64,000 nt of DNA, from the NCBI GenBank assembly GCA_021828195.1, contig JAKASQ010000002.1:91920-155919 (forward strand). The letters are read 5' to 3'. This stretch comes from Thermoplasmata archaeon (GTDB lineage Archaea; Thermoplasmatota; Thermoplasmata; Lutacidiplasmatales; UBA184). A program made the position numbers and the translations under genes. The notes under the pieces were generated by a model. That model worked only from the letters and a program-made list of their open reading frames with translations, was not told where the DNA came from and did no database searches. Positions within the stretch are counted from its first letter, which is position 1. Each line of letters starts with the position of its first letter. Shown one piece after another: positions 1 through 58,717 of this stretch.

Positions 1-126
1 GTAGATCCCCTCCTCCTCGAGGGCTTTGAGGCACTGGCTGCCGGAGTAGTCGAACTCTCCGGCCTCGCCGATCTTCAACGCTCCCGAGCCGAGGAGCACC
101 ACCTTGGAGGGCAATGATCGGGTCAC
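1..126 (-). CDS. carB: Carbamoyl-phosphate synthase large subunit, N-terminal fragment (runs off the window)
   Basis: Hand translation of the minus strand gives [42 protein letters not shown], the CarB N-terminal signature. The GTG start overlaps the carA stop (GTGA). Confidence 0.92.
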
Positions 127-1271
127 GCGCGTCGCTTCACCTTTCCTAGGAAGTGGTCGAAGACGAACCCGGCCTCTTGGGGCCCGGGGTGGCCCTCGGG
201 GTGGCCCTGGAGCGCGAAGGCATTTCCGCGGGGATCCCGCAGCCCTTCGAGGGTCCCATCGTCCGGGTTCATCCCCCACGCCCGCAGTCCGCTCGGCTTG
301 AACGACTTCGGATCGACGGCGTAGCCGTGATTCTCACTGACGATGAGCGCGCGTCCATCGGGGAAGACGATCGTCTTGTTCTGGCCCCGATGGCCGAACT
401 TCATCTTGTAGGTGCTCGCGCCCCGGGCGAGCGCGATCAGTTGTAGGCCGAGGCAGATGCCCAAGGTCGGCAGCGCACGCGTGGACGGCCGACGCAGCTC
501 CTCCACCGTTCGGGCGAGCTGTTCCGGGTCCCCCGGACCATTTCCGACGAGTAGCCCGGAGACGCGACGACCCTCGAAGCGCGCCGGCACTTCGTGATCG
601 TACGGCAGCCTCAGCACCGAGGTCCCACGCTCGACGAGGGCACGAAGGATGCTGGTCTTGATGCCACAATCGAGCACCGCGACGAGCGGGCCGCGGCCTC
701 CCCCGAGGATCTCCGGGGCTCGCGGGCTCACGGCGCCCATGTACTTCTCATCGGCATAGGAAGGAGCCTGCCCGATTTCACGGAGGAGCTCCTCCGAGCT
801 CGGACGGTCTTCCGGCGGGCCGACGTCGATGATCCCGCGCACGACGCCCTCCGTACGCAGATGCTCGGTGAGGCGGCGGGTATCGATGCCGCAGACCCCG
901 GGCACCCCTTCCTCCTCCAGCCACGATGGCAGCGTCCCGACGCTGTCCCAGTGGTGCGGGGCCGTGAGGCCCCGCGCGATCATCCCGCGCACTTGGATCG
1001 AGGAGGACTCGAAACCGACCGGGAGGCCGTTCGAATCCACCACCCCTCGTCGCGGGACGCCGTAGTTCCCGAGGAGCGGATAGGTGAAGGTGAGGATCTG
1101 CCCACGGAAGGACGGATCCGTGAGCGTCTCGGGGTATCCGACCATGCCGGTCGTGAATACCACCTCACCGACGCGGCGCGCTCGCGCACCGAAGCCGACG
1201 CCGTCGAAACGGCTTCCGTCCTCGAGAAATAGAGTCCCCCCCAGAGCGCTCTCCGGCTCCGCCGGCGGCAC
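123..1271 (-). CDS. carA: Carbamoyl-phosphate synthase small subunit
   Basis: C-terminal half of ORF 123..2525: [56 protein letters not shown] start at 1271 is inferred. The upstream part of the ORF is a shadow of the opposite-strand gene. Confidence 0.93.
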
Positions 1272-1310
1272 GGACGTGTGGAACCCGAGCCCGACCAGGT
1301 GGTCGTCTGG

Positions 1311-1318
1311 GTTTAAGA
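1311..1318 (-). promoter_or_regulatory. Candidate TATA box for carA-carB
   Basis: TCTTAAAC on the minus strand, about 40 nt upstream of the proposed carA start, in otherwise GC-rich DNA. Confidence 0.45.
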
Positions 1319-1391
1319 TTTGCGCGGACCGGAGCGGCCCGAGCCAGCTCTCCCGCGACGGGCTAATGACCCGGGGTTCGTAGGGCCGGCG

Positions 1392-2534
1392 ATGCTTGTT
1401 GACACCATCCCGGACTCCCCCATCCTCACATTGATGGAGCGCATCTTCCGGATGCGAGCCGCGGGGGAGACCGTAATCGGCTTGCATATCGGCGAGCCGG
1501 ACTTCGATACCCCACCGGGGATCCGCGCGGCGGCGACGCGCGCGCTCGAAGAGGGGCAGACCCATTACGGATCCTCGCAGGGGACTCCCGAGCTCCGCAG
1601 CGCGATTGCCGAGCGACTCGCGCGCCGACACCACATCCCCGCTCGAGCGGAGGACGTGGTGATCATGCCGTCGAAGTTCGCGATCTACGCGACGATCCTC
1701 GCGACCACCTCCCCCGGGGACGAGGTCCTCATCCCGAACCCGACCTACCTGTTCGAGCAGGCCGTGCGCCTCGCCGGCGCCACGCCGGTGTTCGTTCCCC
1801 TGCGAGAGAACTACGGCCTCGATCCCGCGATCCTCGAGGCGGCGGTGACCCCTCGGACCCGGCTCATCATCTACGCCACCCCGGGGAATCCCACGGGACA
1901 TCTCATGGACCGGCACGATCTCCAGGCGACGATCGAGATCGCGCGAAAGCACCAGCTCATCCTCGCGAGCGACGAGACGTACGAGTCGCTGGTCTACGAC
2001 GGAACGCACTTCGCGAGCGCCGCGCTCGCCTACGGGGCCGAGCGGGTCGTCACGCTGGGAAGCTTCTCGAAGACGTTCGCCATGACCGGCTGGCGCGCCG
2101 GGTACGCGATCGCACCGCCCTCGATCCGCGCGAGGCTGGTGAAGGTCGTGGAACACACCCTGACCTGCATCCCCCCGTTCGTCCAGGAGGGTTGCCGATG
2201 GGCGCTGGAGCACGCCGAACCGGAGGCCGAGCGCTTCCGCGAGGAGTTCCGGGCCCGACGCGATGCCCTCGTCCCGGCGCTCGCATCGATCCCCGGGTTC
2301 CATCTCGCCCGTCCCGACGGAGCCTTCTACGCCTTCCCTTCCTACGACCTTCCGCTCTCCTCCGTCGAGTTTGCCGAACGCCTGCTCATCGAGGAGCATG
2401 TCGCCGTCGTCCCGGGGCTCTCGTTCGGGCCGGCGGGTGAACGGCACATCCGCATCTCCTACGCCCGGCCCCGGGCCGAGCTCGCCGAAGGCGTGGGGCG
2501 GATCCGTCACTTCGTCGAGCGGCACCGCGCGTGA
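1392..2534 (+). CDS. Class I/II PLP-dependent aminotransferase (aspartate aminotransferase-like)
   Basis: IGEPDF, PGNPTG, SDETYE, GSFSKTFAMTGWRAGY, PDGAFY. ATG at 1392 chosen as start. Confidence 0.9.
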   Translation: MLVDTIPDSPILTLMERIFRMRAAGETVIGLHIGEPDFDTPPGIRAAATRALEEGQTHYGSSQGTPELRSAIAERLARRHHIPARAEDVVIMPSKFAIYATILATTSPGDEVLIPNPTYLFEQAVRLAGATPVFVPLRENYGLDPAILEAAVTPRTRLIIYATPGNPTGHLMDRHDLQATIEIARKHQLILASDETYESLVYDGTHFASAALAYGAERVVTLGSFSKTFAMTGWRAGYAIAPPSIRARLVKVVEHTLTCIPPFVQEGCRWALEHAEPEAERFREEFRARRDALVPALASIPGFHLARPDGAFYAFPSYDLPLSSVEFAERLLIEEHVAVVPGLSFGPAGERHIRISYARPRAELAEGVGRIRHFVERHRA

Positions 2535-2586
2535 GCGCTCGGCCCTCGCCGGACCGCTTTAGTAGCCGAGACCGATCGACCGCTCG

Positions 2587-3246
2587 ATGCCCTTCCCCTC
2601 CCGCGTGCACGATCTTACGGCGACCCTCCAGACCCACATGGCCACCTGGCCGACGTCGCCGCTCCCGGTGTTCGAGCCGACCGCCTTCAACGCTCGGGAC
2701 GGCGTCGCGGGGGAGCGAATCGTCTGTTCATCCCACACGGGGACCCACGTCGATGCGCCGTACCACTTCGTCGAGGACGGCCGGACCGTCGATGCCATCC
2801 CACCGGAGGATCTCGTGGGCCCGGCCGTCGTCTTCGATCTGCGGTCGGAGATCGATGGCCCCCTCCTCCGCCGGGCCAGCCTCGAACGGCATTGGCCGAA
2901 GGGCCCGGCTCCGGCCTTCGTCCTGCTGCGCACCGACTGGAGCCAGCAGCGCGCCCCGACCCAGCGCTACCTGTACGACTTCCCGGGCCTCGAGGTGCCC
3001 GCCGCGAAGTTCCTGGTCGAGCGGGGGATCCGGGCCGTGGGCACCGACACGCTGTCCATCGACCCGTATGCGAACTCGGAGTTCGGGGCCCACAAGACCC
3101 TGCTCGCGCGCGGGATCTGGATCCTCGAAGCGTTGGACCACTTGGACCAGTTGCGCGAAGGGGTGGTGTACACGCTCGTTGTCGGACCCCTGAAGATCGG
3201 TGGAGGGAGCGGGGCCATGAGCCGGGTCCTCGCGCTCGAGTTGTAG
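2587..3246 (+). CDS. Cyclase family / kynurenine formamidase-like metal hydrolase
   Basis: SHTGTHVDAPYH motif, GTDTLSID, ILEAL. An AT-rich CTTTAGTA lies about 28 nt upstream. Confidence 0.88.
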   Translation: MPFPSRVHDLTATLQTHMATWPTSPLPVFEPTAFNARDGVAGERIVCSSHTGTHVDAPYHFVEDGRTVDAIPPEDLVGPAVVFDLRSEIDGPLLRRASLERHWPKGPAPAFVLLRTDWSQQRAPTQRYLYDFPGLEVPAAKFLVERGIRAVGTDTLSIDPYANSEFGAHKTLLARGIWILEALDHLDQLREGVVYTLVVGPLKIGGGSGAMSRVLALEL

Positions 3247-3256
3247 GAGGCCGGCG

Positions 3257-4051
3257 ATGGGCATCGATCTGGAACTCGCGGGGCAACGGGTCCTCGTTAC
3301 GGGAGCGAGCCAGGGGATCGGATATGCGGCCGCTCGCGCGCTCCTCGAGGAGGGAGCCCGTGTCGTGATCAACTCCTCCCAGCCGGAGCGCCTCGCGCGA
3401 GCGGTCCAGGCACTCTCCGCGTTGGGCCCCGTCCACGGGATCGTCGCCGACCTGCGCCATCCCTCGGATCTGGAGCGACTGATCGGTGAGTCCACGGAGC
3501 ACCTCGGCGGGCTGGACGTGCTCGTCTACGTGACGGGCGGACCTGCGCCTGGACGCGCCATGGAGCTCGATTACGCGGCCTGGCAGCGGGCCGCAGAACA
3601 GCTCGCGGTGAGCCCGGCCTACTTGAGCCGCCTCGCCGCCGAACGGATGATCTCCAACCCAAGCGGGGGCCGCATCGTGCTCCTGGGATCGCTCACGATG
3701 CGCGAGCCGATCCCGATCCTCGCGCTATCGAATGTGATGCGGATCTCCTTGCTGGGCCTCGTCCGCACGCTCGCGCGCGAGCTCGGACCCAAGCGGGTTC
3801 GCGTGAACGGGATCCTCCCGGGATACATCGACACGGAGCGGGTCCGGGAGATCTTCGAGGACACCGCTCGTCGCGAAGCGATCTCACTCGCGGAGGCCCG
3901 GGCGCGCCTGGAGCGGGAGATCCCACTCGGTCGGCTCGGCGACCCCGCCGAGCTCGCTCGGGTGATCGCGTTCCTGGCGAGCGACGCATCGTCGTACGTC
4001 ACGGGCGCCGTTCTCCCTGTGGACGGCGGGATCCTTCGATCCGTCGGTTAG
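3257..4051 (+). CDS. Short-chain dehydrogenase/reductase
   Basis: TGASQGIG, VNGILPGYIDT, SYVTGAVLPVDGG. The usual YxxxK appears as SNVMR, so it is atypical. Confidence 0.88.
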   Translation: MGIDLELAGQRVLVTGASQGIGYAAARALLEEGARVVINSSQPERLARAVQALSALGPVHGIVADLRHPSDLERLIGESTEHLGGLDVLVYVTGGPAPGRAMELDYAAWQRAAEQLAVSPAYLSRLAAERMISNPSGGRIVLLGSLTMREPIPILALSNVMRISLLGLVRTLARELGPKRVRVNGILPGYIDTERVREIFEDTARREAISLAEARARLEREIPLGRLGDPAELARVIAFLASDASSYVTGAVLPVDGGILRSVG

Positions 4052-4401
4052 GCGTCGGGAGGGAGCGCCTCACCCCGAAACTCCGCTCGTTCCGGTGCGA
4101 AGACGTCGAGGACGACGGTCGCACGGTCGGGGTCGGAGTGCAACTCGTGGGGCACGTCGGGAGGAACGTAGTACGCGTCGCCGCGGACCATCTTCCAGGT
4201 TGCGTCGCCGACCGTGAAGAGCCCGCCGCCCTCGAGCACGGTACCGTACTGCGCGTGCGGGTGGGTATGCTTTGGGAACATGCTGCCGGGAGCGATGCGG
4301 TAGAGGACGAGCATCGCGCTCGGTCCGTGCGCTAGGATGCGGCGCTGAACACCGGGAAGCATCTCGTGCCAAGCCCCGGCCTTCTCGTGCCACAACGGCA
4401 T
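4048..4401 (-). CDS. Cupin domain protein
   Basis: HTHPHAQ ... VPPDVPHEL cupin metal-binding motifs. Confidence 0.85.
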   Translation of the reverse strand: MPLWHEKAGAWHEMLPGVQRRILAHGPSAMLVLYRIAPGSMFPKHTHPHAQYGTVLEGGGLFTVGDATWKMVRGDAYYVPPDVPHELHSDPDRATVVLDVFAPERAEFRGEALPPDA

Positions 4402-4507
4402 CCCCCGAGCGATGCGCCCCCGCTATTTGGAGGGTGAGGGGCGCATCTCCCGGAGGATTTCGGCTCGGCGAGGCATCAAATCCACGACGGGGTTCGTCCG
4501 GTACGAT

Positions 4508-5506
4508 ATGCCCGGGTTCCCGCGACTCCAAGAGTCCTACGACATCGTCATCGTGGGCGGGGGCCACGCGGGGCTCCAAGCGGGATTGAAGGCGGCGCTC
4601 TTGGGTCACTCCGCCGCTCTGCTCGATCGGGGACCGAGGTACAGCCGGTCGTACTATGCGCCGACCATGGACAACATTCCCGGGTTTCCCGACGGGATCT
4701 CCGGCCACAAGCTCCTCGATGCTCAGATCGCGGCGGTGCGCAAGGTCGACCGCGAGGTCGGCTACTTCACCCCGGCCGAGGTGACGCGCGTCGAGCGCGC
4801 CGAGGCCGGTCAGTACGCGGTGGCGTTCGACTGGCTCAAGCAACGCCGGGTCACCCGGGGCCGGGCCGTCATCCTCGCGATGGGGGTCGTCGACCGGATG
4901 CCGGTGATCGGAGGCAAGATCGACCCGATCTTCCCCTGGGCCAATCAGGCGATCGTCGAATTTTGCATCCTGTGTGACGGGCACACGCTCCCGAGCCGGT
5001 CGGTCGCGGTGCTGGGTCACGATGCGTTCGCCGTGCGATCCGCGATCGACCTCTTCCACTTCCAGCCGGCTTCGGTGGCGCTCCTTACGAACGGCCGCCC
5101 CCTCCTCGAAGGAAGCGACGGGGCCGAGCGTGCCGATCTTGAGCGCCAGATGGCCGAGCGCCACATCTCTCTCCACGACTCGGAGATCGTAGGGTTTGAC
5201 GGGATCCGGGAGCAGCGCTTCCACGTCCGGTTCGCCGACGGCTCCGTCCGGCAGTACGACAAGGGGTTCAGCGCCCTCGGCTGGTACAACATGAACTCCC
5301 AGATCCCGCGCTCCCTCGGGGCCCGGTTCGACCACGATGGGTTTGTCGTGACCGACGAGGATTGCCGGGTGCTATCCGATGCATCGGGCGAGGTCATCCC
5401 GGGCCTGTACTGCGTAGGGGACCTGCGGAACGGATGGAATCAGATTCCCGAAGCGTGGGCCACCGCGGAGCGGGCCGTGATCCATGCGTACTCGTGGTAC
5501 CTGTAG
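4508..5506 (+). CDS. Thioredoxin-reductase-like FAD-dependent oxidoreductase
   Basis: IVIVGGGHAG FAD motif, NIPGFPDGISG, CILCDG redox CxxC, GLYCVGD. ATG at 4508 chosen. Confidence 0.82.
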   Translation: MPGFPRLQESYDIVIVGGGHAGLQAGLKAALLGHSAALLDRGPRYSRSYYAPTMDNIPGFPDGISGHKLLDAQIAAVRKVDREVGYFTPAEVTRVERAEAGQYAVAFDWLKQRRVTRGRAVILAMGVVDRMPVIGGKIDPIFPWANQAIVEFCILCDGHTLPSRSVAVLGHDAFAVRSAIDLFHFQPASVALLTNGRPLLEGSDGAERADLERQMAERHISLHDSEIVGFDGIREQRFHVRFADGSVRQYDKGFSALGWYNMNSQIPRSLGARFDHDGFVVTDEDCRVLSDASGEVIPGLYCVGDLRNGWNQIPEAWATAERAVIHAYSWYL

Positions 5507-5527
5507 TTCCTCCCGGGCGCCGAGGCC

Positions 5528-6295
5528 CTACCCGGGAGTGGCCGACGCGACGCGGGGTCGGGGCTCGGAGGGCGGGCTCGCGATTTGGAGCTGTCGCGAG
5601 AGCTCGGTGAGGTCGGTGGCGATCGCGGAGGCGCCGGCGGCTAGGAAGCGGTCGGTCGACATGGTCGACGACTCGGACGGATCGGGAAGAACGGCGTAGA
5701 AGCGCACGCCCGCGCGCGTCGCGCACTCCGCATCGATCAGATGGTCTCCGACGTAGAGCGCGCGCTCGACCGGGACCCCCATCTCCGAGAGGAGGTAGAG
5801 GAGGGCCTCAGGGGAGGGTTTCGCGGGACCCGGCGCGTTGCGCGTCCGCATGAAGGAGAAGTACCGGTCGAGGTGGGTTCGGCCGAGGGCTTCGCGGGTG
5901 AACGGCTCCGAGCTGCGGGTCAACAGGCCCAGCCGGAATCCGCGTCCGTGGAGTCCCCGAAGGAGTGCCGGGGCCCCCGCACGGACCGTCGTCCGGTCGA
6001 GCGCCTGCATCTCGATCCCGTCGATCAGTTTGTGAAACTCGGCCTCGAACCGGAGGATGACGGTAGTCGGGGTCTCGGAAGAACGCAGTTCGTCGCGGGC
6101 GCTCTCCAAGATGCGATGGAGCGGCTCCTCCGGGCTCAATCGGCCGGGGGTGACCCCGTAGCGCTCGGCGAGCCGGATCACCTCGTGGCGCATCCGTCCG
6201 AAATCGTGACGCGACACCACGAGGGTGCCATCGAGGTCGAAGACGACCCCGAGAACGGGTTCGATGAACCGGGGCTCCGGGACGCGCGTGGGCAT
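5528..6295 (-). CDS. HAD-superfamily hydrolase (phosphoglycolate phosphatase-like)
   Basis: VFDLDGTLV, AKPSPEAL, YVGDHLID. Confidence 0.88.
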   Translation of the reverse strand: MPTRVPEPRFIEPVLGVVFDLDGTLVVSRHDFGRMRHEVIRLAERYGVTPGRLSPEEPLHRILESARDELRSSETPTTVILRFEAEFHKLIDGIEMQALDRTTVRAGAPALLRGLHGRGFRLGLLTRSSEPFTREALGRTHLDRYFSFMRTRNAPGPAKPSPEALLYLLSEMGVPVERALYVGDHLIDAECATRAGVRFYAVLPDPSESSTMSTDRFLAAGASAIATDLTELSRQLQIASPPSEPRPRVASATPG

Positions 6296-6374
6296 GGGTA
6301 CCTCTCGGAGAGAAAATACACGAGCGATGGTACGTATAGTCTTCCCTCCACCGGCAGGCCCGCCGGGGGGGCCG

Positions 6375-7901
6375 CTAGGTGCCGTTCGGCCGCTCGAGCG
6401 TCACGATCGATTCGCGCAGGCGGAAGGAGCGCCGCTGGCCGGAGCGTCGTTCGCGTGCGATGTCGACCGATCGGATCCGAAAGCCAACGGAAGCGCCGAG
6501 GCGGGCGGTGATCAGATCCCCGGGGACGTACGTGCCGGCGAGCAGCGAATCTCCGATGACAAGGACGAATCGTCCGCCGGGCCGGAGCGAGCGGTAGACT
6601 CCCGATAGGATCTGAAGCAGGTCCCGGAAGTAGCGGTGGACGATCCCGTGCATGTCATCGCGCCGGTAACATCCCTTGCGCCCCGTCCGATCCCGGATCT
6701 GCTCGAGGATCTCGGGCAGCCAGGGGTCCGGGGCGTCGTGCGTGGTTCGATACGCTCGCGTTTCCGCACGAGGCAGGTTGTCGCAGGCGACCTCCTCCCG
6801 ACGCAATCTCGCGAGATCGGCGTACGAAGAGACGTACCCGAGCCACGCGAGGTCGATCTTGTAGTTCATGACGTAGTCCATCCCGTTCACGTAGGGCGGG
6901 CTCGTGAGCGCGAGATCCACCGATCCCGCGGGCAACTCCATCGTTCGCGCGTCCCGCTGCTCGACCACGATCGGGGGGCCCCAGCCCGCGCGCTCGGGGG
7001 CCAGGACCTCGAGATCGGACCCCATCTCGGCGATCGCGGCACGGAACCGATCGAACGGGGGCGGGCCGGCGGGTGCCGCCGGTCCGTACCCCAGGCACGG
7101 GGAGCGTCGCAGGTGGCTGGACGGGATGAGGATCCGACCGAAGGCGAGGCGGGCCGCCTCGTCCTCGGGCCGAGCCGACTCGGGAAGGGCATCGCGCAGC
7201 TGGGTGAGTTCGTCCAAGACATCGGGGTCGAACTGTCGCCGGGTCTCGCGGAGGAACGGGAGGGCTCCGGGGGCTGATCGACGCGCGCGCGCGAGCACGC
7301 GTCGCCCGGCGCGGTCAAGCGCGGAGCGATCGAGTTCGAACCGGCCCTTCACGCGCGCCGCGAGCGCCGCCGGCGCGAGCAGTTCGAAGCCGATGGCTCG
7401 GGCTCCGGCGCGGCGAGCCTCGATGAGGGTCGTCCCGCTTCCCGAGAACGGGTCGAGCACGGTCGCCGGGGCGGAAAGCCCGGCATGGTCGATCACCGTG
7501 CGCACGAATTCCGCCGAGTAGCCCTGAACGTACGGCCACCAGCGATGGACCGGCAACTGATCGTTGGGTCGGAAGGTGATCGGACCGTCGTACGTGCCGA
7601 GAGCGACACCGTCCTCGTGCTCGAAGCGCTCCCGGAAGGCGGCCGCGTCCTCGAAATCCGGTCGACGCTCCAGGGTCTCGTAGTCGCTCAGCATCCACAG
7701 GCCACGGCCCATTCGCACGACTTCGCCGCGCGCTGCGAGACGGCCGAGCTCCACCTCCACCACCGGGGAGTCGACCTCCAGTCTCCGGGCCAGTTGGCGG
7801 ACGGTGGCCCCAATCGCCCCCGTCTCCTCCAGGGCGGTGCGCAGCTCCGCCGAGGAACCCATCATCGCGGGAGCCGGGAGTGCGACCACCAGGGCGCGCA
7901 T
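6375..7901 (-). CDS. DNA methyltransferase (amino-MTase, N4-cytosine type, alpha motif order) with N-terminal winged-helix-like segment
   Basis: HRWWPYVQGYS, motif I VLDPFSGSGTT, motif IV TSPPY. N-terminus ATVRQLARRLEVDSPVVEVELGRL...GEVVRMGRGLW. Start is 7901 or 7865. Confidence 0.82.
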   Translation of the reverse strand: MRALVVALPAPAMMGSSAELRTALEETGAIGATVRQLARRLEVDSPVVEVELGRLAARGEVVRMGRGLWMLSDYETLERRPDFEDAAAFRERFEHEDGVALGTYDGPITFRPNDQLPVHRWWPYVQGYSAEFVRTVIDHAGLSAPATVLDPFSGSGTTLIEARRAGARAIGFELLAPAALAARVKGRFELDRSALDRAGRRVLARARRSAPGALPFLRETRRQFDPDVLDELTQLRDALPESARPEDEAARLAFGRILIPSSHLRRSPCLGYGPAAPAGPPPFDRFRAAIAEMGSDLEVLAPERAGWGPPIVVEQRDARTMELPAGSVDLALTSPPYVNGMDYVMNYKIDLAWLGYVSSYADLARLRREEVACDNLPRAETRAYRTTHDAPDPWLPEILEQIRDRTGRKGCYRRDDMHGIVHRYFRDLLQILSGVYRSLRPGGRFVLVIGDSLLAGTYVPGDLITARLGASVGFRIRSVDIARERRSGQRRSFRLRESIVTLERPNGT

Positions 7902-13356: not shown

Positions 13357-13650
13357 ATGACCGAACCGACCGACCGTGACGTCGCGGGCATCCCTCCGGG
13401 AATGGTGGGCCCCGTGATCGAGATCTTGGACGCTTCCCCCTCCCCGCTCCGACGGCGAAAGCTCCTGGAAGAACTGGAGCGTCGCGGGCATCGGATCTCG
13501 CTCGCGGGGCTCAATCGCATCCTCCAGCGCCTCGCCGAATCCGGACGGAGCGTCGAGACCCCGGACGGCGTCCGAATGAAACCGCGGGGCGGTTCCCCGC
13601 CCCGCGAAGTGTCGTCTAGCGGTCCTTCTTCTCGTCGTCGGTGCCCTTGA
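13357..13650 (+). CDS. Small winged-helix-like hypothetical protein
   Basis: GGAG upstream of ATG; LRRRKLLEEL...ISLAGLNRILQRLAESG resembles a wHTH. Divergent from the membrane protein gene. Confidence 0.55.
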   Translation: MTEPTDRDVAGIPPGMVGPVIEILDASPSPLRRRKLLEELERRGHRISLAGLNRILQRLAESGRSVETPDGVRMKPRGGSPPREVSSSGPSSRRRCP

Positions 13651-13849
13651 AGCCCTTCTTGGCTCCAGCGCCGACGGCCTTGGCCCCGCTCCAGATTCCC
13701 TTGCCGACCTTACCGGCGACCTCTCCGGTCTTCTCGGCTACGTGCAAGGAACCCTCGGTCGCCCGCTGACCCAGGCCCACTTCGTGGCCGCAGGCCGTGC
13801 AGTTCTTCGCGCCCTCGGTAAGCTCGGCTCCGCATCCTGAACACTTCAT
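13616..13849 (-). CDS. Small zinc-ribbon domain protein
   Basis: MKCSGCGAELTEGAKNCTACGH (CxxC...CxxC). Confidence 0.75.
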   Translation of the reverse strand: MKCSGCGAELTEGAKNCTACGHEVGLGQRATEGSLHVAEKTGEVAGKVGKGIWSGAKAVGAGAKKGFKGTDDEKKDR

Positions 13850-13933
13850 GATCGTCGGTCCCCCCGATGCCCCAGCAAAATGCACTTCCTTCCGTTTAAA
13901 CCTACCGGGTTTCCGAAGGAGAGCAGGCGGGGA

Positions 13934-14006
13934 TGGGCCGGGACGGATTTGAACCGTCGATCTCCGCGTTGTAAGCGCGACGTCCTAACCGCTAGACCAC
14001 CGGCCC
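13934..14006 (-). tRNA. tRNA-Val (TAC)
   Basis: Cloverleaf GGGCCGG-TG-GTCTAGCGGTTAGGAC-G-TCGCG CTTACAA CGCGG-AGATC-GACGG TTCAAAT CCGTC-CCGGCCC-A. CCA is not encoded. Confidence 0.96.
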
Positions 14007-15821
14007 GTGGTGGAGGGATGACCGCTCTCCCGTCATGGGAGTATCGGTGCTGGAGTGCTCGCGATGACGCACCCGCACGGCGCTCCCCTTCGTCAGTCCC
14101 GTCATCAGCCGCCCGGGTAGGAGCGCTTCGCCGACCCCGAGCAGCGTCCCATCGCGCATCAGCACCACCGCATCTCCTACGCGGATGGCCGGATCCGCAC
14201 GTCGAACGCCCGGGACGAACAGATCTCCGGCGAGGGTGAGCCCCTCCGAGACCTCGACCGCGAGCGGGGGATCGGGAAGGAGCCGCTGGCCGCCGGCGAC
14301 CGTGAGGTGGAACAACCCCCGCTCCTCCCTCCATGTCGCGAGGTCGACGTGAGCCGGGTCCACGAGACGCTGGAACCACGGCCGACCGGCCAAGCGGATC
14401 TTCCCCGCGAAGAGTCGGTCCGCGGCGGTCCGGCCAAACTGGAACGCGGCAATCTCCGCGAGCTCCTCCCGGACCACGGAGAGGGGTCCCCCGGAGGTGG
14501 GCCGGGACTCGACGAGCGCGCCGGCGACCGCGTCCCGCAGCGATGCGAGGGCCGCGGTCGTCGTGGTCCGATCGTCGCCGATCGTCCACGCGGTGGGAAG
14601 GCGATCTCCGATCGCTTCGCGCACGAAGCCATACTCGGCCGGATCGAGGTGGGCCACGATCGCGCGATACCGTCCCTGCCCGAGGATGTGATGGAGGCCC
14701 TCCCGGATGGGCTGCCGCTCCGCCTCGGACCACTCGCCGGTCACCGGGATGTCGTACTGCCGAGCCGGGTACACGTCCTCGAGCTCGCGCGGAACGAGCC
14801 CGACCGGAGAACTGAGCGAGACGACGTGCACGCGCTCGAGGGAACGGAGGCCCTCGAGAGCGCTCCAGAACCGTCGGTGCGAGCGGGAATTGCGGTACGG
14901 TTTGGTCCGGCTGCACGGAACCAGCAGCAGCACCTCCTTCGAGGCCGGTGGGCGGTACCGTTCGAGCAGGCGGGCGCGGAACCTCCGCATCTGTGGGCGA
15001 CGCAAGGATTCGGCCAGGACGTACCGGCCCGTCCCATGACCGACGACGGGAGTGTATTCCTCCAGGAGATCCCCAAGGTCCCGGTCCGCGTACCGCAGCA
15101 TCTCCGCCAAGGTCGGCTCGGCGGCGAGTCGCGCCTCCACCAGTTCCCTCAGCCGACCCACACGCGACGCGTGGTTAGCCCGGGCGAAGGCGTCCCGATA
15201 GATCGCTCCGAGATCGCTCGCCACGGAAGTCGTCAACGATGTTTCGGGGACCGAAGCTCCCAGCGACTCGTCCAACTCCGTCCCCGCCGACGAAAGGATC
15301 TCCCCTTCGGTCGTATCCATGAGGTCGATGCCGAGGTATTGCAGCATGGGGATTCGGTGGGGCAGTGCCACTCGGGGCGCCCACAATAGCGGCGCCGGTC
15401 CGAGCTCCTTGCGAATCGCGCCGATCGCTTGGATGAACGATTCTCCGTCCGACCAAAGCGCCCGCGCGTTCCCGAGGACCAACAGCCCCGGGCGGGCCGC
15501 GCGTAGGCGCTGAAGCGCATCGGCGGGCGGCGGCCAGTGGACCACCCAACTCCCGAACCCGGCTTCGGAAGCGCTTCCGCCCGCTCCGGTGATCTCGGGG
15601 GCGGGGACCGGGAAGGTGAGGTCCACGGAGTGACTGCCATCGCTGATCACTAGATGGCGATGCCCAGGGAGAGCCCCCGCGACCGTGGAGATGCACAGCC
15701 CGCCCGGTGGGGCAAGGTCGTTGGGCCGTTCGAGCAGCGCCGGTACAACGAACGATAGGTTCCCGACCGCCCCCCGACCGACCAGCCCGAGCCCTTCGAT
15801 GCGATCCACCGTGCGGGCCAT
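13992..15821 (-). CDS. arcS: Archaeosine synthase subunit (ArcS/TgtA2) with C-terminal PUA domain
   Basis: LLLVPCSRTKPY, SSPVGLVPRELEDVYPARQYDIPVTGEW, QFG, PUA LFVPGVRRADPAIRVGDAV. Confidence 0.88.
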   Translation of the reverse strand: MARTVDRIEGLGLVGRGAVGNLSFVVPALLERPNDLAPPGGLCISTVAGALPGHRHLVISDGSHSVDLTFPVPAPEITGAGGSASEAGFGSWVVHWPPPADALQRLRAARPGLLVLGNARALWSDGESFIQAIGAIRKELGPAPLLWAPRVALPHRIPMLQYLGIDLMDTTEGEILSSAGTELDESLGASVPETSLTTSVASDLGAIYRDAFARANHASRVGRLRELVEARLAAEPTLAEMLRYADRDLGDLLEEYTPVVGHGTGRYVLAESLRRPQMRRFRARLLERYRPPASKEVLLLVPCSRTKPYRNSRSHRRFWSALEGLRSLERVHVVSLSSPVGLVPRELEDVYPARQYDIPVTGEWSEAERQPIREGLHHILGQGRYRAIVAHLDPAEYGFVREAIGDRLPTAWTIGDDRTTTTAALASLRDAVAGALVESRPTSGGPLSVVREELAEIAAFQFGRTAADRLFAGKIRLAGRPWFQRLVDPAHVDLATWREERGLFHLTVAGGQRLLPDPPLAVEVSEGLTLAGDLFVPGVRRADPAIRVGDAVVLMRDGTLLGVGEALLPGRLMTGLTKGSAVRVRHREHSSTDTPMTGERSSLHHGPVV

Positions 15822-15869
15822 GGGACTCCTCCTGGGCCGGAGGTCACGGAGGGGAAACGGGTTTCGGCG

Positions 15870-16223
15870 CTACGGGGGGCCGCCCGTCTTCGCGGGGTCG
15901 CGCCGGCGGCGCCCTCCGGCGGGCTTGGGGAAGTACGCTTCCCACTGCGCGAGGAGCGCCTCTCGGCGGTCGGCACCCGCCTCGCTTCTTCCGCGCTTTC
16001 CGAACATGGGGTCGTGCGTGTCGCGGACCGCCCGCAGGAACGCCTCCGGGTTCGCGCTGGCCTGTTCGAAGCCGTACAGGATCAACTGTCGCAGGAAGCT
16101 CGACCGGCCCCGCCAGCCGATCCGGCGGCGCACCGCGGGATTGAGGTGGCGCTTCGCCATTCGCCAGACGTCGTTGGTCGTCTTGTAGTCGCGCACGGAC
16201 AGGCTGATCATCACCTGCGGCAT
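15870..16223 (-). CDS. Small basic hypothetical protein (possible ribbon-helix-helix-like)
   Basis: ATG with a TATA-like TTATATAC about 27 nt upstream; a beta-like VMISLSV followed by predicted helices (RSSFLRQLI). Confidence 0.6.
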   Translation of the reverse strand: MPQVMISLSVRDYKTTNDVWRMAKRHLNPAVRRRIGWRGRSSFLRQLILYGFEQASANPEAFLRAVRDTHDPMFGKRGRSEAGADRREALLAQWEAYFPKPAGGRRRRDPAKTGGPP

Positions 16224-16331
16224 ACTTCGGGGTCCCTCTCTCCTTCCCGTATATAACGAGAGGCGTCGCGTGCTTGCTCCCTCTCAGAACCATCGCACCC
16301 GCAAGCGCCGTCCCCGATGGATCCGCGCGCC

Positions 16332-17201
16332 CTACGCGACGAATATGGCCGCGGCGGCCCCGACGAGGTAGATCGCGCTCATCAGGAAGTGGCGCCGGAA
16401 CGCGACCCGCGTATCTGCGGTGTGCCGCAAGAGCTGGTAGTCGGTGATGACGACTACCACCGCGATCGCGGCGAGTCCAATCGGGTAGGCGATCCCGAGA
16501 CCGAACGCGAAGCCGAACGCGGCGAGCAGGATCAGCGCTCCGGCGTGCAGCACGGGTACGAAGTAGGTCGACCGACGTAGGCCGAGGAGCAGGGGGAGCG
16601 AGTGTAGCTCGAGCATGCGGTCGCTCGCGAGGTCGCCGAGGCTGTGGATCGTCTCGAACGCGGTCCCCCACAGCAGGAGACCCCCGACCGCGAAGAGAAC
16701 GAGGGGTGGGAGCGTGCCCTGGACCGCAATGAAGACCGCGGCAGGCACGATCGCCTCGACCAGTCCGAGGAACGGGGTGGTCCAGGCGGTGATGCGCTTC
16801 GTGTACGTGTACCCGTACACCATCGCGAGCGCCACCGGGGACAGATAGAACGCAAGCGGGTTCAGGAAATAGGAGACCAGGATCAGCAGGGCCGCGCTCG
16901 CGAGCGAGAAGGCGAGAGCGAACTCCGGGCGCGCGCGGCCGGTGACGAGCACCCGGTTCTGCGTTCGGGGGTTGACCGCGTCCTGGGCGCGATCGGCCCA
17001 GCGGTTGAAGCTGTGGCCCGCGTTACGAGCCGCCAGGAACGCGATGACGATGAGGAGGAACGTCGCCAGCGAGGGAAGGCCCTTCGAAGCGATGAAGATG
17101 AAGGCGAGGGCGAACGGGAGGTTCAGTCCGAGGGTCTGGATCTCGAGCAGCCTACCGAAATCCCCCCACCGGGCGGCGGCGCCGGTCGGTGGATCGGTCA
17201 C
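16332..17201 (-). CDS. UbiA-family prenyltransferase (MqnP / 4-hydroxybenzoate polyprenyltransferase-like)
   Basis: ARNAGHSFNRWADRAQDAVNPRTQNR, YTYTKR, multiple TM segments. The GTG at 17201 overlaps the UbiD stop. Confidence 0.85.
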   Translation of the reverse strand: MTDPPTGAAARWGDFGRLLEIQTLGLNLPFALAFIFIASKGLPSLATFLLIVIAFLAARNAGHSFNRWADRAQDAVNPRTQNRVLVTGRARPEFALAFSLASAALLILVSYFLNPLAFYLSPVALAMVYGYTYTKRITAWTTPFLGLVEAIVPAAVFIAVQGTLPPLVLFAVGGLLLWGTAFETIHSLGDLASDRMLELHSLPLLLGLRRSTYFVPVLHAGALILLAAFGFAFGLGIAYPIGLAAIAVVVVITDYQLLRHTADTRVAFRRHFLMSAIYLVGAAAAIFVA

Positions 17202-18679
17202 GGCTGCGGCGGGCGGAAGAGGCGAGCGAGTGACGGATCGCTCGCGATCAAGCGTTCGGCGGCCTGGCGCGTCGCGTCGTCCATCCGGATCTCCTCGGGC
17301 CACGGACGGGGGAATCCGTCCTCGAGTCCTTTCTTGGTCGCGTCGATGCCGATCTTCGCCCCAAAGTTGGGAACGGGGTTGGAGATCGACAGCTGGTCGA
17401 CCGGTCCGCGGGAGAGCTCGAAGTCCCGCTCCGGATCCGCCTGCAGGCCGACCCGGTAGAGGACCTCGGAGAGATCATGGACGTTGACGTCGGCGTCCAC
17501 GACGACCAGGTAGCGCGTGAACATCATCTGGCCCAAGCCCCAGAGGGCGTGCATCACCTTGCGAGGCTGGCCGGGGTAGGACTTTCGGATCGAGACGACG
17601 CCCACATTGATGAACAGGCCCTCGAGAGGCAGGTTCATGTCCACGAGCTCGGGGAGGATCAACCGGAGGACCGGTAGGAAGATGCGCTCCACCGCTTTTC
17701 CGAGGATCCCGTCCTCGGTGGGGGGCCGGCCCGTTACGGTCCCGAGGTACACCGCCCGCTCCCGGTGCGTCACGTGCGTGACGTGGAAGACGGGGAACGG
17801 CTCCGGGAGCGAGTAGTATCCGGTGTGATCTCCGAACGGTCCTTCGATCTTGCGCTCGGTGGGATCGACGTACCCTTCGAGCACGATCTCGGCCTGCGCC
17901 GGGACCTCCAGATCCACCGTGCGCGCCGGCACGAGCTCGACCGGCTCGGAGCGCAGGAAGCTCGCGAAGGCGAAGTTGGAGATCCCCTCCGGGACCGGAG
18001 CGAGCCCGGAGAACACGGTCGCCGGGTCGGCGCCGATGACCGCCGCGACGGGCATGCGCTCGTCCCGTGCGGCCCACTTGCGAAAGTTGCTCGCCCCGAT
18101 GCGCTGCAGCTGGGCGTGGAATCCGAGCGTATCGGGGCCGTACTGCTGGAGGCGGTAGATCCCCGTGTGCGGCTCGTTCGTGTCGGGGTCCTTCGTGATG
18201 ACGACCGGGAACGTTACGGTCCGTCCGCCGTCCTTCGGCCAGCACTTCAGGATCGGCAGCCGGTCGAGATCCACCATCGGTTCCTCGACCTCCTGGCATG
18301 GGCCCGCTCGCACCCGTTTCGGCGCGAGGGACCGGAGGGTGGAGAGCGCCGCGATCGTTCCTCCGAGGTCCCGGATCGCTCCCACAAACCCGGCCGGCGG
18401 GCGCAGATGAACGAGCTCTCCGATGCGTTTCGAGGTCGCATCGACGCTCGGATCCCCGAGCGCGAGCGCGATCCGACGGGTCGAGCCCAGCACGTTCGTC
18501 GCGACGGGCATCGCGCATCCCTCCACGTTCTCGAAGAGGAGCGCGGGGCCGTCCCGGGCAAGGACCCGTTGGGTGATCTCCGTGATCTGGAGATCGCGAC
18601 TTACGGGCGATCGCACCCGAACGAGATCGCCCTGAGCATCGAGAGCCTCGAGAAATTCCCCGAGCGAGCGGTGCGCCAT
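17198..18679 (-). CDS. ubiD: UbiD-family decarboxylase (menaquinone-pathway MqnL-like)
   Basis: GPALLFENV, CWPKDGG, EIVLEG, EGPFGDHTGYYS, VVVDADVNV, KIGIDATKK. Confidence 0.9.
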   Translation of the reverse strand: MAHRSLGEFLEALDAQGDLVRVRSPVSRDLQITEITQRVLARDGPALLFENVEGCAMPVATNVLGSTRRIALALGDPSVDATSKRIGELVHLRPPAGFVGAIRDLGGTIAALSTLRSLAPKRVRAGPCQEVEEPMVDLDRLPILKCWPKDGGRTVTFPVVITKDPDTNEPHTGIYRLQQYGPDTLGFHAQLQRIGASNFRKWAARDERMPVAAVIGADPATVFSGLAPVPEGISNFAFASFLRSEPVELVPARTVDLEVPAQAEIVLEGYVDPTERKIEGPFGDHTGYYSLPEPFPVFHVTHVTHRERAVYLGTVTGRPPTEDGILGKAVERIFLPVLRLILPELVDMNLPLEGLFINVGVVSIRKSYPGQPRKVMHALWGLGQMMFTRYLVVVDADVNVHDLSEVLYRVGLQADPERDFELSRGPVDQLSISNPVPNFGAKIGIDATKKGLEDGFPRPWPEEIRMDDATRQAAERLIASDPSLARLFRPPQP

Positions 18680-18763
18680 CGGGTGGGGCGACGCCGCCCC
18701 CGCTCATGAGCCCGGCGACACCTGGGCAGGTTCATATGGGAACCCTCGGTCGGGCGATCCGCG

Positions 18764-53510: not shown

Positions 53511-53621
53511 AACCGACTTCGGGCAAAGCCAGTAGGGGCTTTCGTGCTGGGCCGCCACGGAGAGGGAGGCTAGGCCGAGAGCAGGCAGCTCGCAACCACG
53601 ATAGTTTGACGATCGCACACT

Positions 53622-53695
53622 GGGCCCGTAGTATAGCTTGGATATCACGGGGGCCTCCGGAGCCTCAAACCCGGGTTCGAATCCCGGCGGGCCCG
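53622..53695 (+). tRNA. tRNA-Arg (CCG)
   Basis: GGGCCCG...GGGGC CTCCGGA GCCTC AAAC CCGGG TTCGAAT CCCGG CGGGCCC G. The D-stem is imperfect. Confidence 0.92.
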
Positions 53696-54132
53696 TCATC
53701 GTCCACCGAGCCGGGACGCCCTCGCGCTCTTGGTTCACTCCCCGGAGCCGTGGGACATCGGGTAGTCAAGCCGGGCTCACGGGCCGTACCGGCCGCCTCC
53801 CCCGGCCTCCGCTGGGCCGAGTACGAAGATGGCCGACGGCCGGCCGAACCTCAAGTGCGAGGTTAGCCTCCTCCAGGGCGATCGGAATCTCCTCCCTCGG
53901 GAATCCGTCCTTCATCTACGACAACTTCCTGGCCCCGCCGAGCTCTTCCATCACGATCCGACCGATGGGAATCATCAACACTCCGTGGGATCTCGTGGTG
54001 CGAAGAGTCGTTGGGGTCGGGATGTTCGCATGGGGCTACCGCAGTAGGATTCATCCTCGCCCGGCCCCGATCGTGGCCACGTCTCCCGCTCCGCGTGCGC
54101 TTCCCGGTACGCCCCGCGCGTAAGGACCGATA

Positions 54133-58338: not shown

Positions 58339-58357
58339 CCTCACCTGCGCGTTCCCT

Positions 58358-58433
58358 GGGCCCGTAGCTTAGCCCGGCCGAGAGCGGCCGGCTCATAACC
58401 GGTTGATCGACGGTTCGAATCCGTCCGGGCCCA
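58358..58433 (+). tRNA. tRNA with CAT anticodon, most likely tRNA-Ile2 (alternatively elongator Met)
   Basis: GGGCCCG...GCCGG CTCATAA CCGGT...GACGG TTCGAAT CCGTC CGGGCCC A. The G1-C72 / GGGCCC acceptor is typical of archaeal Ile2 and excludes initiator Met. Confidence 0.88.
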
Positions 58434-58717
58434 TCCCCATCCGGGCTTGAACACACCGGTGAGCCCCCGAGTCCTGTGAAGCGCGGTAGGCGCGCCACCG
58501 GCCCTCGGTTGCTGCCCGGGTCGGCGGACACGGACCTCCAGCGCGGGTCGCGATCTCGGTTGGCACCGAGTGCCCAAGGGCCGATGGAATGGACGGATCG
58601 GGGCCAGAGTTCCGTGAGGTCCGTGGTCGAACGGGCCCCCACGGTACACCCCCAGGCAGTTGGCCTGCGGAGAGTCCGAGGACCGGGGAATCGGCCGACC
58701 GATCCCCCTCTCCCCTC

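Follow-up and report, generated by a model that had tools for sequence, protein, structure and literature searches.

An arcS-like gene that ends inside tRNA-Val(UAC) in Thermoplasmata, with a conserved tRNA-flanking block in its coding tail

Introduction

A tRNA-binding protein's open reading frame (ORF) can enter the adjacent tRNA gene on the same strand, as has been described for selB and selC in Proteobacteria and Nitrospirae, where the selB of Dyella and Luteibacter has its stop within the tRNA, at a position that is conserved (Mukai 2021, PMC8124441). Close relatives carry new stops before the tRNA, and the overlap has been characterized as "highly conserved but not essential" (PMC8124441). 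Here we analyzed an arrangement of the same kind in 64,000 nt of DNA from a Thermoplasmata archaeon (contig JAKASQ010000002.1 of GenBank assembly GCA_021828195.1; this whole stretch, with 67.8% GC, is referred to below as the window), in which a gene for a homologue of the archaeosine synthase ArcS runs into a gene for tRNA-Val. The overlap is old and common among related loci, yet both its exact register and the overlap itself have repeatedly been lost. Judged by analogy, selB/selC is its closest precedent, and the punctuation of mitochondrial transcripts by tRNAs is a looser analogue.

In mitochondrial tRNA punctuation, which is a general mode of expression, mRNA ends arise from tRNA excision and incomplete stop codons are completed by polyadenylation. 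The likeness lies in a coding region that abuts or overlaps a tRNA, whose 5' processing would set the 3' end of the mRNA. The difference is that here the tRNA contains a full stop codon, which processing would remove instead of completing, and that the neighboring genes have ordinary promoters. The parallels with selB/selC extend to a C-terminal extension that is translated tRNA sequence, to a remnant copy that an insertion has left behind, as seen in the relative L059 described below, and to a nonstop-mRNA hypothesis that has been raised for that system also (PMC8124441). However, selB/selC is bacterial and can nest a whole tRNA, whereas the present overlap is archaeal and 15 nt long; moreover, ArcS is not specific for tRNA-Val, and a block at a promoter position lies in its coding tail. 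Both arrangements are known from bioinformatics only, and in limited literature searches no ORF–tRNA overlap of this kind turned up for Archaea. In essentially all tRNAs, ArcS modifies the preQ0 at position 15 together with RaSEA, a partner that it needs, with transfer of lysine onto preQ0-tRNA (PMC11298593). The locus resembles that pathway in having the ArcS domain set in the ORF and the G15 archaeosine site in the tRNA.

Results

The tRNA gene, called by ARAGORN as tRNA-Val with anticodon TAC and matched by Rfam RF00005 at 70.8 bits, lies at 13934..14006 on the minus strand. Its cloverleaf was recovered by alifold from 48 sequences, its anticodon reads GUA/GUG, its nucleotide 1 is 14006, its G15 (13992) lies in the D-loop, and the CCA end is not encoded. 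The arcS-like ORF (13992..15821, minus strand, 609 aa) is the longest minus-strand ORF there and has the C-terminus ...SSLHHGPVV, followed by a TAG stop at 13994..13992. The two genes share 15 nt (13992..14006, minus strand), whose codons G-P-V-V-stop are nucleotides 1–15 of the tRNA. An earlier note on this DNA had read this register as GGG CCG GTG GTC TAG, with the G of TAG (13992) as nucleotide 15, and our scripted numbering agrees with it. The predicted RNase P site falls between 14007 and 14006. The proposal in the same note that a cut at nucleotide 1 would remove the stop codon holds by geometry, since the full arcS mRNA contains at least tRNA nucleotides 1–15.

The ORF has the Pfam domains expected of ArcS, namely DUF5591 (7e-43) followed by TGT_C2 (5e-07) and PUA (8e-10). 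Its best family match is the NCBIfam profile ArcS-alpha (NF040592) at 338.9 bits, which does not reach the equivalog cut-off of 440 bits. Because this profile is the best match and yet falls below its cut-off, and because homologues carry the JGI label "archaeosine synthase alpha-subunit", the sequence identifies the window ORF as a divergent homologue of the ArcS alpha-subunit. The profile stops at residue 587, and beyond the PUA domain follows a tail of 22 codons (EHSSTDTPMTGERSSLHHGPVV; 13995..14060, minus strand); the window sequence has no in-frame stop between the PUA domain and tRNA-Val. In independent DNA runs from mine drainage and sediment, contigs matched positions 13600–14500 with 0 differences and 0 gaps, one of them at a depth of ~357x. 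This identity across the junction excludes the frameshift or assembly error for which the earlier note had proposed a check by read mapping. The DNA runs also contained a 34-nt contig at 260–300x that covers only the 3' half of the tRNA (13934..13967); that half is common to other organisms in the samples, so that short-read contigs break inside the tRNA.

To place the overlap among relatives, a scan with one genome per species yielded 71 loci, all from Thermoplasmata metagenome-assembled genomes (MAGs), and a second sample was an arcS-blind collection of this tRNA from metagenomes; pooling and dereplication gave 152 unique arcS+tRNA loci. The stop position was scored per locus relative to the tRNA, with the end of the PUA domain (RHR) as anchor or by tblastn, and two of the 152 pooled loci (classes 352 and 589) are frame artefacts of the classifier. 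Three of the 71 loci (AcS1-45, AcS1-67 and AcS1-36) are from Candidatus Lutacidiplasmatales/TMEG of acidic soils and acid mine drainage, whose 67–70% GC and habitat (PMC9287336) agree with the GC content of the window and with its origin in mine drainage. In nearly all of the 71 genome loci tRNA-Val(TAC) follows arcS, and the overlap is present in ~128 of the 152 unique loci (~84%), which are from Lutacidiplasmatales-like Thermoplasmata; it is thus not a strain-specific extension, one of the conditions under which the earlier note would have given up its reading. The stop ends at tRNA nucleotide 15 in 46/67 genome loci and 99/152 pooled loci. It also ends at nucleotide 10 (other frame, TAG at 8–10; 3/67 and 15/152, respectively), at nucleotide 21 (U13 replaced by C, and a TGA at 19–21 reached; 6/67 and 9/152) and at nucleotide 22 (third frame; 2/67 and 5/152). 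Stops before the tRNA account for 10/67 genome loci, including L059 with its 569-nt gap, and for ~17/152 pooled loci, where they lie at -1 to -31. A further 5/152 have arcS and the tRNA separated by 0.18–1.2 kb, a class that in the 67-locus set is counted among the pre-tRNA stops. A conserved stop inside the tRNA together with loss of the overlap through upstream stops or separation is the pattern known from selB/selC. Of the conservation that the earlier note had asked for, the overlap and its most frequent register at nucleotide 15 are kept in relatives, but the register is not fixed. The spacing from the PUA domain to the tRNA is constant at 54 nt in 51/67 loci. In a neighbor-joining tree of the C-terminal 330 aa of ArcS, position 15 looks ancestral in the large clade, where it has been left at least 10 times independently, and the deep branches are mixed. 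In L059 the sequence between arcS and tRNA-Val (4864..5432) contains a minus-strand gene of 137 aa (4876..5289), and ~50 nt resembling the arcS tail are present twice through duplication, with a decayed copy on arcS and an intact copy beside the tRNA. Gaps similar to that of L059 occur in L077, L079, L087, L100 and L107.

The coincidence of the stop codon with G15 is explained by the build of tRNAs. A14 and R15 are near-universal in tRNAs, and a tRNA with U13 therefore stops one of three reading frames at G15. ARAGORN called four tRNAs in the window (Val, Leu, Arg and Met), and because TAG is present at nucleotides 13–15 in three of them (Val, Arg and Met), the match is generic and no more than chance. 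Where U13 is C the stop shifts to nucleotides 19–21, and frame changes of +/-1 move it to nucleotides 8–10 or 20–22. Nothing in the data ties the chemistry of ArcS to the position of its stop, and the link to archaeosine that the earlier note had drawn from G15 fails on the stops at nucleotides 10, 21 and 22, on the ~17 lineages that stop before the tRNA and on this generic TAG. The tRNA-Arg(CCG) and tRNA-Met(CAT) genes called by ARAGORN are at 53621..53697 and 58357..58436; tRNA-Met, with CCCAAATCCC at about -40..-31, is likewise preceded by no strong AT-rich TATA. No tRNA-Asn, a gene that the earlier note had named, was called by ARAGORN in the window, and it was probably mis-assigned.

Inside the coding tail of arcS lies a conserved nucleotide block that was absent from the earlier note, ACCGATACTCCCATGAC at 14032..14048 on the minus strand, or -42..-26 from tRNA nucleotide 1. 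Its consensus is ACCGAYA-N3-CCAWGAY, made up of a BRE-like CGAYA (BRE, transcription factor B recognition element) at -40..-36 and CCCATGAC at -33..-26, and its synonymous sites are frozen. ACC at -42..-40 is found in 50/50 sequences and GAC at -39..-37 in 44/50, and at NCC (-33..-31) the amino acid varies (P/A/S/T) in the 50 sequences with both C's invariant. Third-position entropy is 0 for ACC (-42) and NCC (-33), versus 1.1–1.9 bits for the invariant Gly/Val/Ala/Arg codons of the PUA domain. A second, small conserved spot, YCT in relatives and TCA in the window, lies at 14019..14021 on the minus strand (-15..-13), and at -14/-13 the conservation of C and T is 90% or higher. In ~10 loci the block is read in another arcS frame, with arcS ending at the block's own TGA (e.g., L051, L073, L090 and L140), and in L059, L079, L087 and L100 it has remained next to the tRNA although the DNA there is non-coding, with arcS 0.2–1.2 kb away. 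Because it is kept with the tRNA whatever the frame or distance of arcS, the block, on this comparison of loci, belongs to the tRNA and not to ArcS.

Among 50 unique ungapped sequences, all three positions are variable in each of the last ~8 codons that precede GPVV, a pattern that indicates no protein-level constraint on the distal tail, which is probably neutral. The apparent conservation of the proximal tail comes from the tRNA-owned DNA element at -42..-26 that it covers. A chance C-terminal extension, which the earlier note had offered as its fallback, therefore comes closest for the distal part, which is not conserved as protein.

The position of the block was compared with those of other tRNA promoters. 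In the window tRNA-Val gene the BRE position is occupied by CGATA (-40..-36) and the TATA position by CCCATGAC (-33..-26). The orthologous tRNA-Val of L134, a locus of 38% GC with no arcS nearby, has CGAAA at -39..-35 and TTATAAAT at -33..-26; in the tRNA-Val genes of L138 and L156 the TATA positions are TTATTTAAA (-33..-25) and TTATATAG (-37..-30), with the BRE position not identified in either. The tRNA-Leu of the window has CGAAA at -44..-40 and GTTATCC at -37..-31. The block thus shares with archaeal BRE/TATA tRNA promoters two correctly spaced parts, an invariant CGAYA, a possible purine-rich BRE comparable to the CGAAA of L134 and tRNA-Leu, and an 8-mer, and as a whole it resembles the CGAAA/GTTATCC of tRNA-Leu. 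Its position equals that of orthologous promoters, and its conservation is independent of coding. It differs from them in that the 8-mer, CCCATGAC or CCCAAGAC, is not AT-rich, whereas other promoters of the genome are, and in that the candidate element lies inside a coding region. The earlier note had seen no TATA-like element here, and indeed no canonical AT-rich TATA lies upstream of tRNA-Val, whereas tRNA-Leu and the neighboring genes have one. Because the block occupies the positions of CGAAA/TTATAAAT in the AT-rich orthologous locus L134, it is probably a non-canonical, GC-rich candidate promoter of tRNA-Val that would give a short leader. The block has no second copy in the 64-kb window, where a match with two mismatches is at chance level, and as it is unique there we rejected it as a general promoter motif of the genome. 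The tRNA-Val upstream consensus (CCGACCGACA...ATGACCGAGG) has two copies of GACCGA at a distance of 16 nt, at -44..-39 and -28..-23; this pair, noted by eye only and weak in the sequence of the window, may be a tandem site for protein binding.

At the RNA level, RNAalifold on -30..-1, -48..+7 and -120..+85 recovered only the cloverleaf and no leader consensus structure, and an Rfam search found the tRNA only, with no family matching the block. A hairpin named for -26..-6 had 74.5% of cells paired versus 70.4% in shuffles, one covarying pair, a slide -1 control that was equal and a mean z-score of -0.7. Three candidates were rejected, a leader–trailer stem (GGAGAGC/GCTCTCC in the window), since trailers are not conserved across loci, a C/D-box sRNA (ATGAY...CTGA), since by eye its boxes are inconsistently present, and a longer-range RNA structure with the block, since only the cloverleaf folds.

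With regard to transcription, the window has no T-rich terminator between arcS and tRNA-Val; because of this, and because the complete arcS ORF needs tRNA nucleotides 1–15, read-through is structurally required. In L070, a position-15 locus with its tRNA at 4852–4924, the X27 metatranscriptome contig is an exact match to 4726–4930; it begins within arcS, 126 nt before the tRNA, and extends ~6 nt beyond the tRNA. Four metatranscriptomes together gave about 20 contigs that tile 1–4930 of this locus, and none covers 4931–6672. We estimate the chance of such tiling under uniform DNA carry-over at ~0.74^20, or ~0.002, and the contigs are probably RNA. At low depth, and from contigs, they suggest that the transcribed region ends at the tRNA. 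Read-through co-transcription of arcS and the tRNA probably also occurs. The view in the earlier note that the tRNA is made from the arcS mRNA therefore finds support as to co-transcription in the bridging L070 contig, whereas the absence of a promoter from which it was deduced is put in question by the block kept with the tRNA at -42..-26. The X26 and X28 contigs of L070, which come from two separate metatranscriptomes, both end at 4583/4584 inside arcS, which may be an RNA end or a strain k-mer branch. For the window organism, three metatranscriptomes of the same study held no transcript matches. A mixed-culture run was uninformative, as contigs of a ~94% identical strain break inside the tRNA, whose k-mers are common to other organisms, and further runs containing junction words were rejected as support, being tRNA-Val genes of other organisms.

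The arcS unit is flanked by genes on the same strand. As read from the sequence only, the 5' region of arcS (15826..15866, minus strand) has a BRE/TATA-like CGAAACCCGTTTCC at 15866..15853 and a Shine–Dalgarno-like GGAGGAG at 15832..15826, with 4 nt between it and the start codon (ATG at 15821). A gene with no Pfam family and a strong canonical TATA (GTTATATA, 16257..16250) precedes arcS by 48 nt (15870..16257, minus strand; ATG 16223, stop 15870), and the two are possible operon partners. Downstream, a zinc-ribbon gene (13616..13902, minus strand; ATG 13849) has its own canonical TATA, GGTTTAAAC at 13902..13894, 31 nt past the tRNA 3' end. GTA makes up 2 of the 50 Val codons of arcS, so that tRNA-Val(UAC) serves a rare codon, a role compatible with weak expression.

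Further upstream of the arcS unit are genes for a UbiA prenyltransferase and a UbiD-family decarboxylase (16332..18703, minus strand), a neighborhood that is also transcribed in L070. The DNA downstream of tRNA-Val is highly variable among loci. A ~45-nt AT-rich block, TACCTATAGTACTTTGTATAGTCTAAATTGAAATTCTATATAT, is strongly conserved within DNA of 67–70% GC; it lies 46–88 nt past the tRNA 3' end in L016, L028, L030, L036 and L039 and further downstream in L057 and L071. A conserved ORF of 351 aa (L030 5010..6065), PhoU-like by eye in its C-terminal half, begins shortly downstream of this block, which is probably its promoter/operator region. Directly downstream of tRNA-Val in L007, L015, L050, L057 and L071, GGATTCGAACCGCCGGGCG has a reverse-complement likeness to a tRNA T-arm/acceptor and gave no ARAGORN call; it could represent tRNA fragments from integrative elements, or a divergent tRNA.

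Discussion

On balance, we think it rather probable that arcS and tRNA-Val(UAC) form a long-lived, non-essential same-strand overlap, with a stop codon held by the tRNA, a probable embedded promoter and untuned read-through. In this model arcS, having no stop of its own past the PUA domain, would run ~54 nt through the DNA upstream of the tRNA until the highly constrained D-arm supplied the first in-frame stop (U13-A14-G15 = UAG), and this stop would be maintained because selection acts on the tRNA and not because it acts on ArcS. The element at -42..-26 would act as a GC-rich, non-canonical promoter at the BRE/TATA positions, giving a short leader, and arcS transcripts, with no terminator before the tRNA, would also pass through it. 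RNase P and RNase Z acting on the read-through RNA would then yield extra tRNA and a stop-less arcS message ending at 14007, which may be a tolerated side effect and not a tuned feedback. The overlap itself is dispensable, given its repeated independent loss.

Several points weigh against this interpretation. The block is GC-rich, unlike the AT-rich TATA boxes that the genome has 25–30 nt before leaderless ATGs, it occurs once in the window, and its binding by TATA-binding protein and transcription factor B (TBP/TFB) is putative. A promoter does not need the 54-nt spacing seen in 51/67 loci, as leader length is free, and another constraint may act. The sole bridging RNA contig has a depth of 2.7 and is the product of an assembly, as opposed to reads; as it begins 126 nt upstream of the tRNA, it speaks for read-through only and is silent on an internal start. 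The direction of change among the registers is tentative, the tree being neighbor-joining with midpoint rooting, and retention of the overlap in ~84% of loci could mean weak selection for it.

The main rival to the promoter interpretation is that the block is an RNA-level leader element on the arcS–tRNA co-transcript, either a site for a processing or stabilizing protein or a protector of the arcS mRNA 3' end after RNase P cleavage. The GC-richness of the block and its unusually constant spacing to the tRNA would suit such an element, as would the possible hairpin at -26..-6 in many sequences, and in L059 a canonical GGTTTAAC at -93..-86 lies upstream of the retained block, placing it in a ~60-nt leader. 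Nevertheless, we regard this as unlikely, as RNAalifold gave no leader consensus structure, covariation is limited to one pair and the slid control scores equally, unconserved trailers leave no leader–trailer stem, Rfam gave no match, and the block aligns positionally with the BRE/TATA of orthologous tRNA genes. A more far-reaching possibility, and an improbable one in our judgement, is that arcS and tRNA-Val are one transcription unit throughout the order, with the mRNA 3' end made by RNase P, enzyme output coupled to tRNA processing and the block as a new leader or 3'-end element. The earlier note pointed in the same direction by suggesting a possible feedback circuit; in the strict form of this idea a promoterless tRNA-Val would come solely from the arcS mRNA, and removal of the stop by RNase P would make tRNA maturation compete with ArcS synthesis in a selected, archaeosine-linked feedback. 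The missing canonical TATA, the co-transcription that a complete ORF makes obligatory, the contig that bridges the two genes where transcription appears to end at the tRNA, the retention of the overlap in most loci and the same idea put forward for selB/selC (PMC8124441) all speak in its favor. However, we found no positive support for a circuit: the stop is not tied to G15, TAG at nucleotides 13–15 is generic, at least 10 independent lineages have shifted or lost the overlap, and the block at the promoter position remains with the tRNA at distances from arcS of as much as 1.2 kb. In addition, ArcS acts on essentially all tRNAs (PMC11298593), and one low-demand tRNA would be a poor sensor of its activity. 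We consequently doubt the feedback strongly.

Two further explanations concern the tail itself. If it were a functional ArcS peptide with a TD[TS]PMTEE motif, for the sake of which the overlap was kept, the TDTPMTEE-like peptide found in most relatives would be accounted for; however, synonymous sites are frozen although the residue encoded at -33 varies, arcS of ~10 loci uses a different frame across this DNA and stops within the block, the tail of L047 has only 6 residues, L059 has let the arcS-attached copy decay and kept the tRNA-attached one intact, and the distal tail is without conservation. A functional peptide is for these reasons a slim prospect. Slimmer still, to the point of being negligible, is the chance that the overlap is an artefact of assembly, frameshift or an over-extended ORF call. 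Long spurious ORFs are common in GC-rich genomes and frameshifts do occur in MAGs, but the independent assemblies are identical, including the one at ~357x, the frame and stop recur in ~100 independent species-level genomes, and the stretch from the PUA domain to the tRNA is without an in-frame stop.

Taken as a same-strand overlap with a tRNA-held stop, the locus would give the selB/selC overlap of bacteria a counterpart in Archaea, with more than 100 independent genomes, and it suggests that such overlaps can last across an order-level clade simply through the tRNA freezing the stop codon. One stretch of DNA would double here as a coding tail and an element upstream of a tRNA, and the block is a candidate for a GC-rich, TATA-less promoter inside a coding region of high-GC Thermoplasmata. 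For annotation, the apparent "conserved peptide" at the ArcS C-terminus is one imposed by tRNA-flanking DNA. If RNase P processes the co-transcript efficiently, nonstop mRNA would have a natural archaeal source in arcS.

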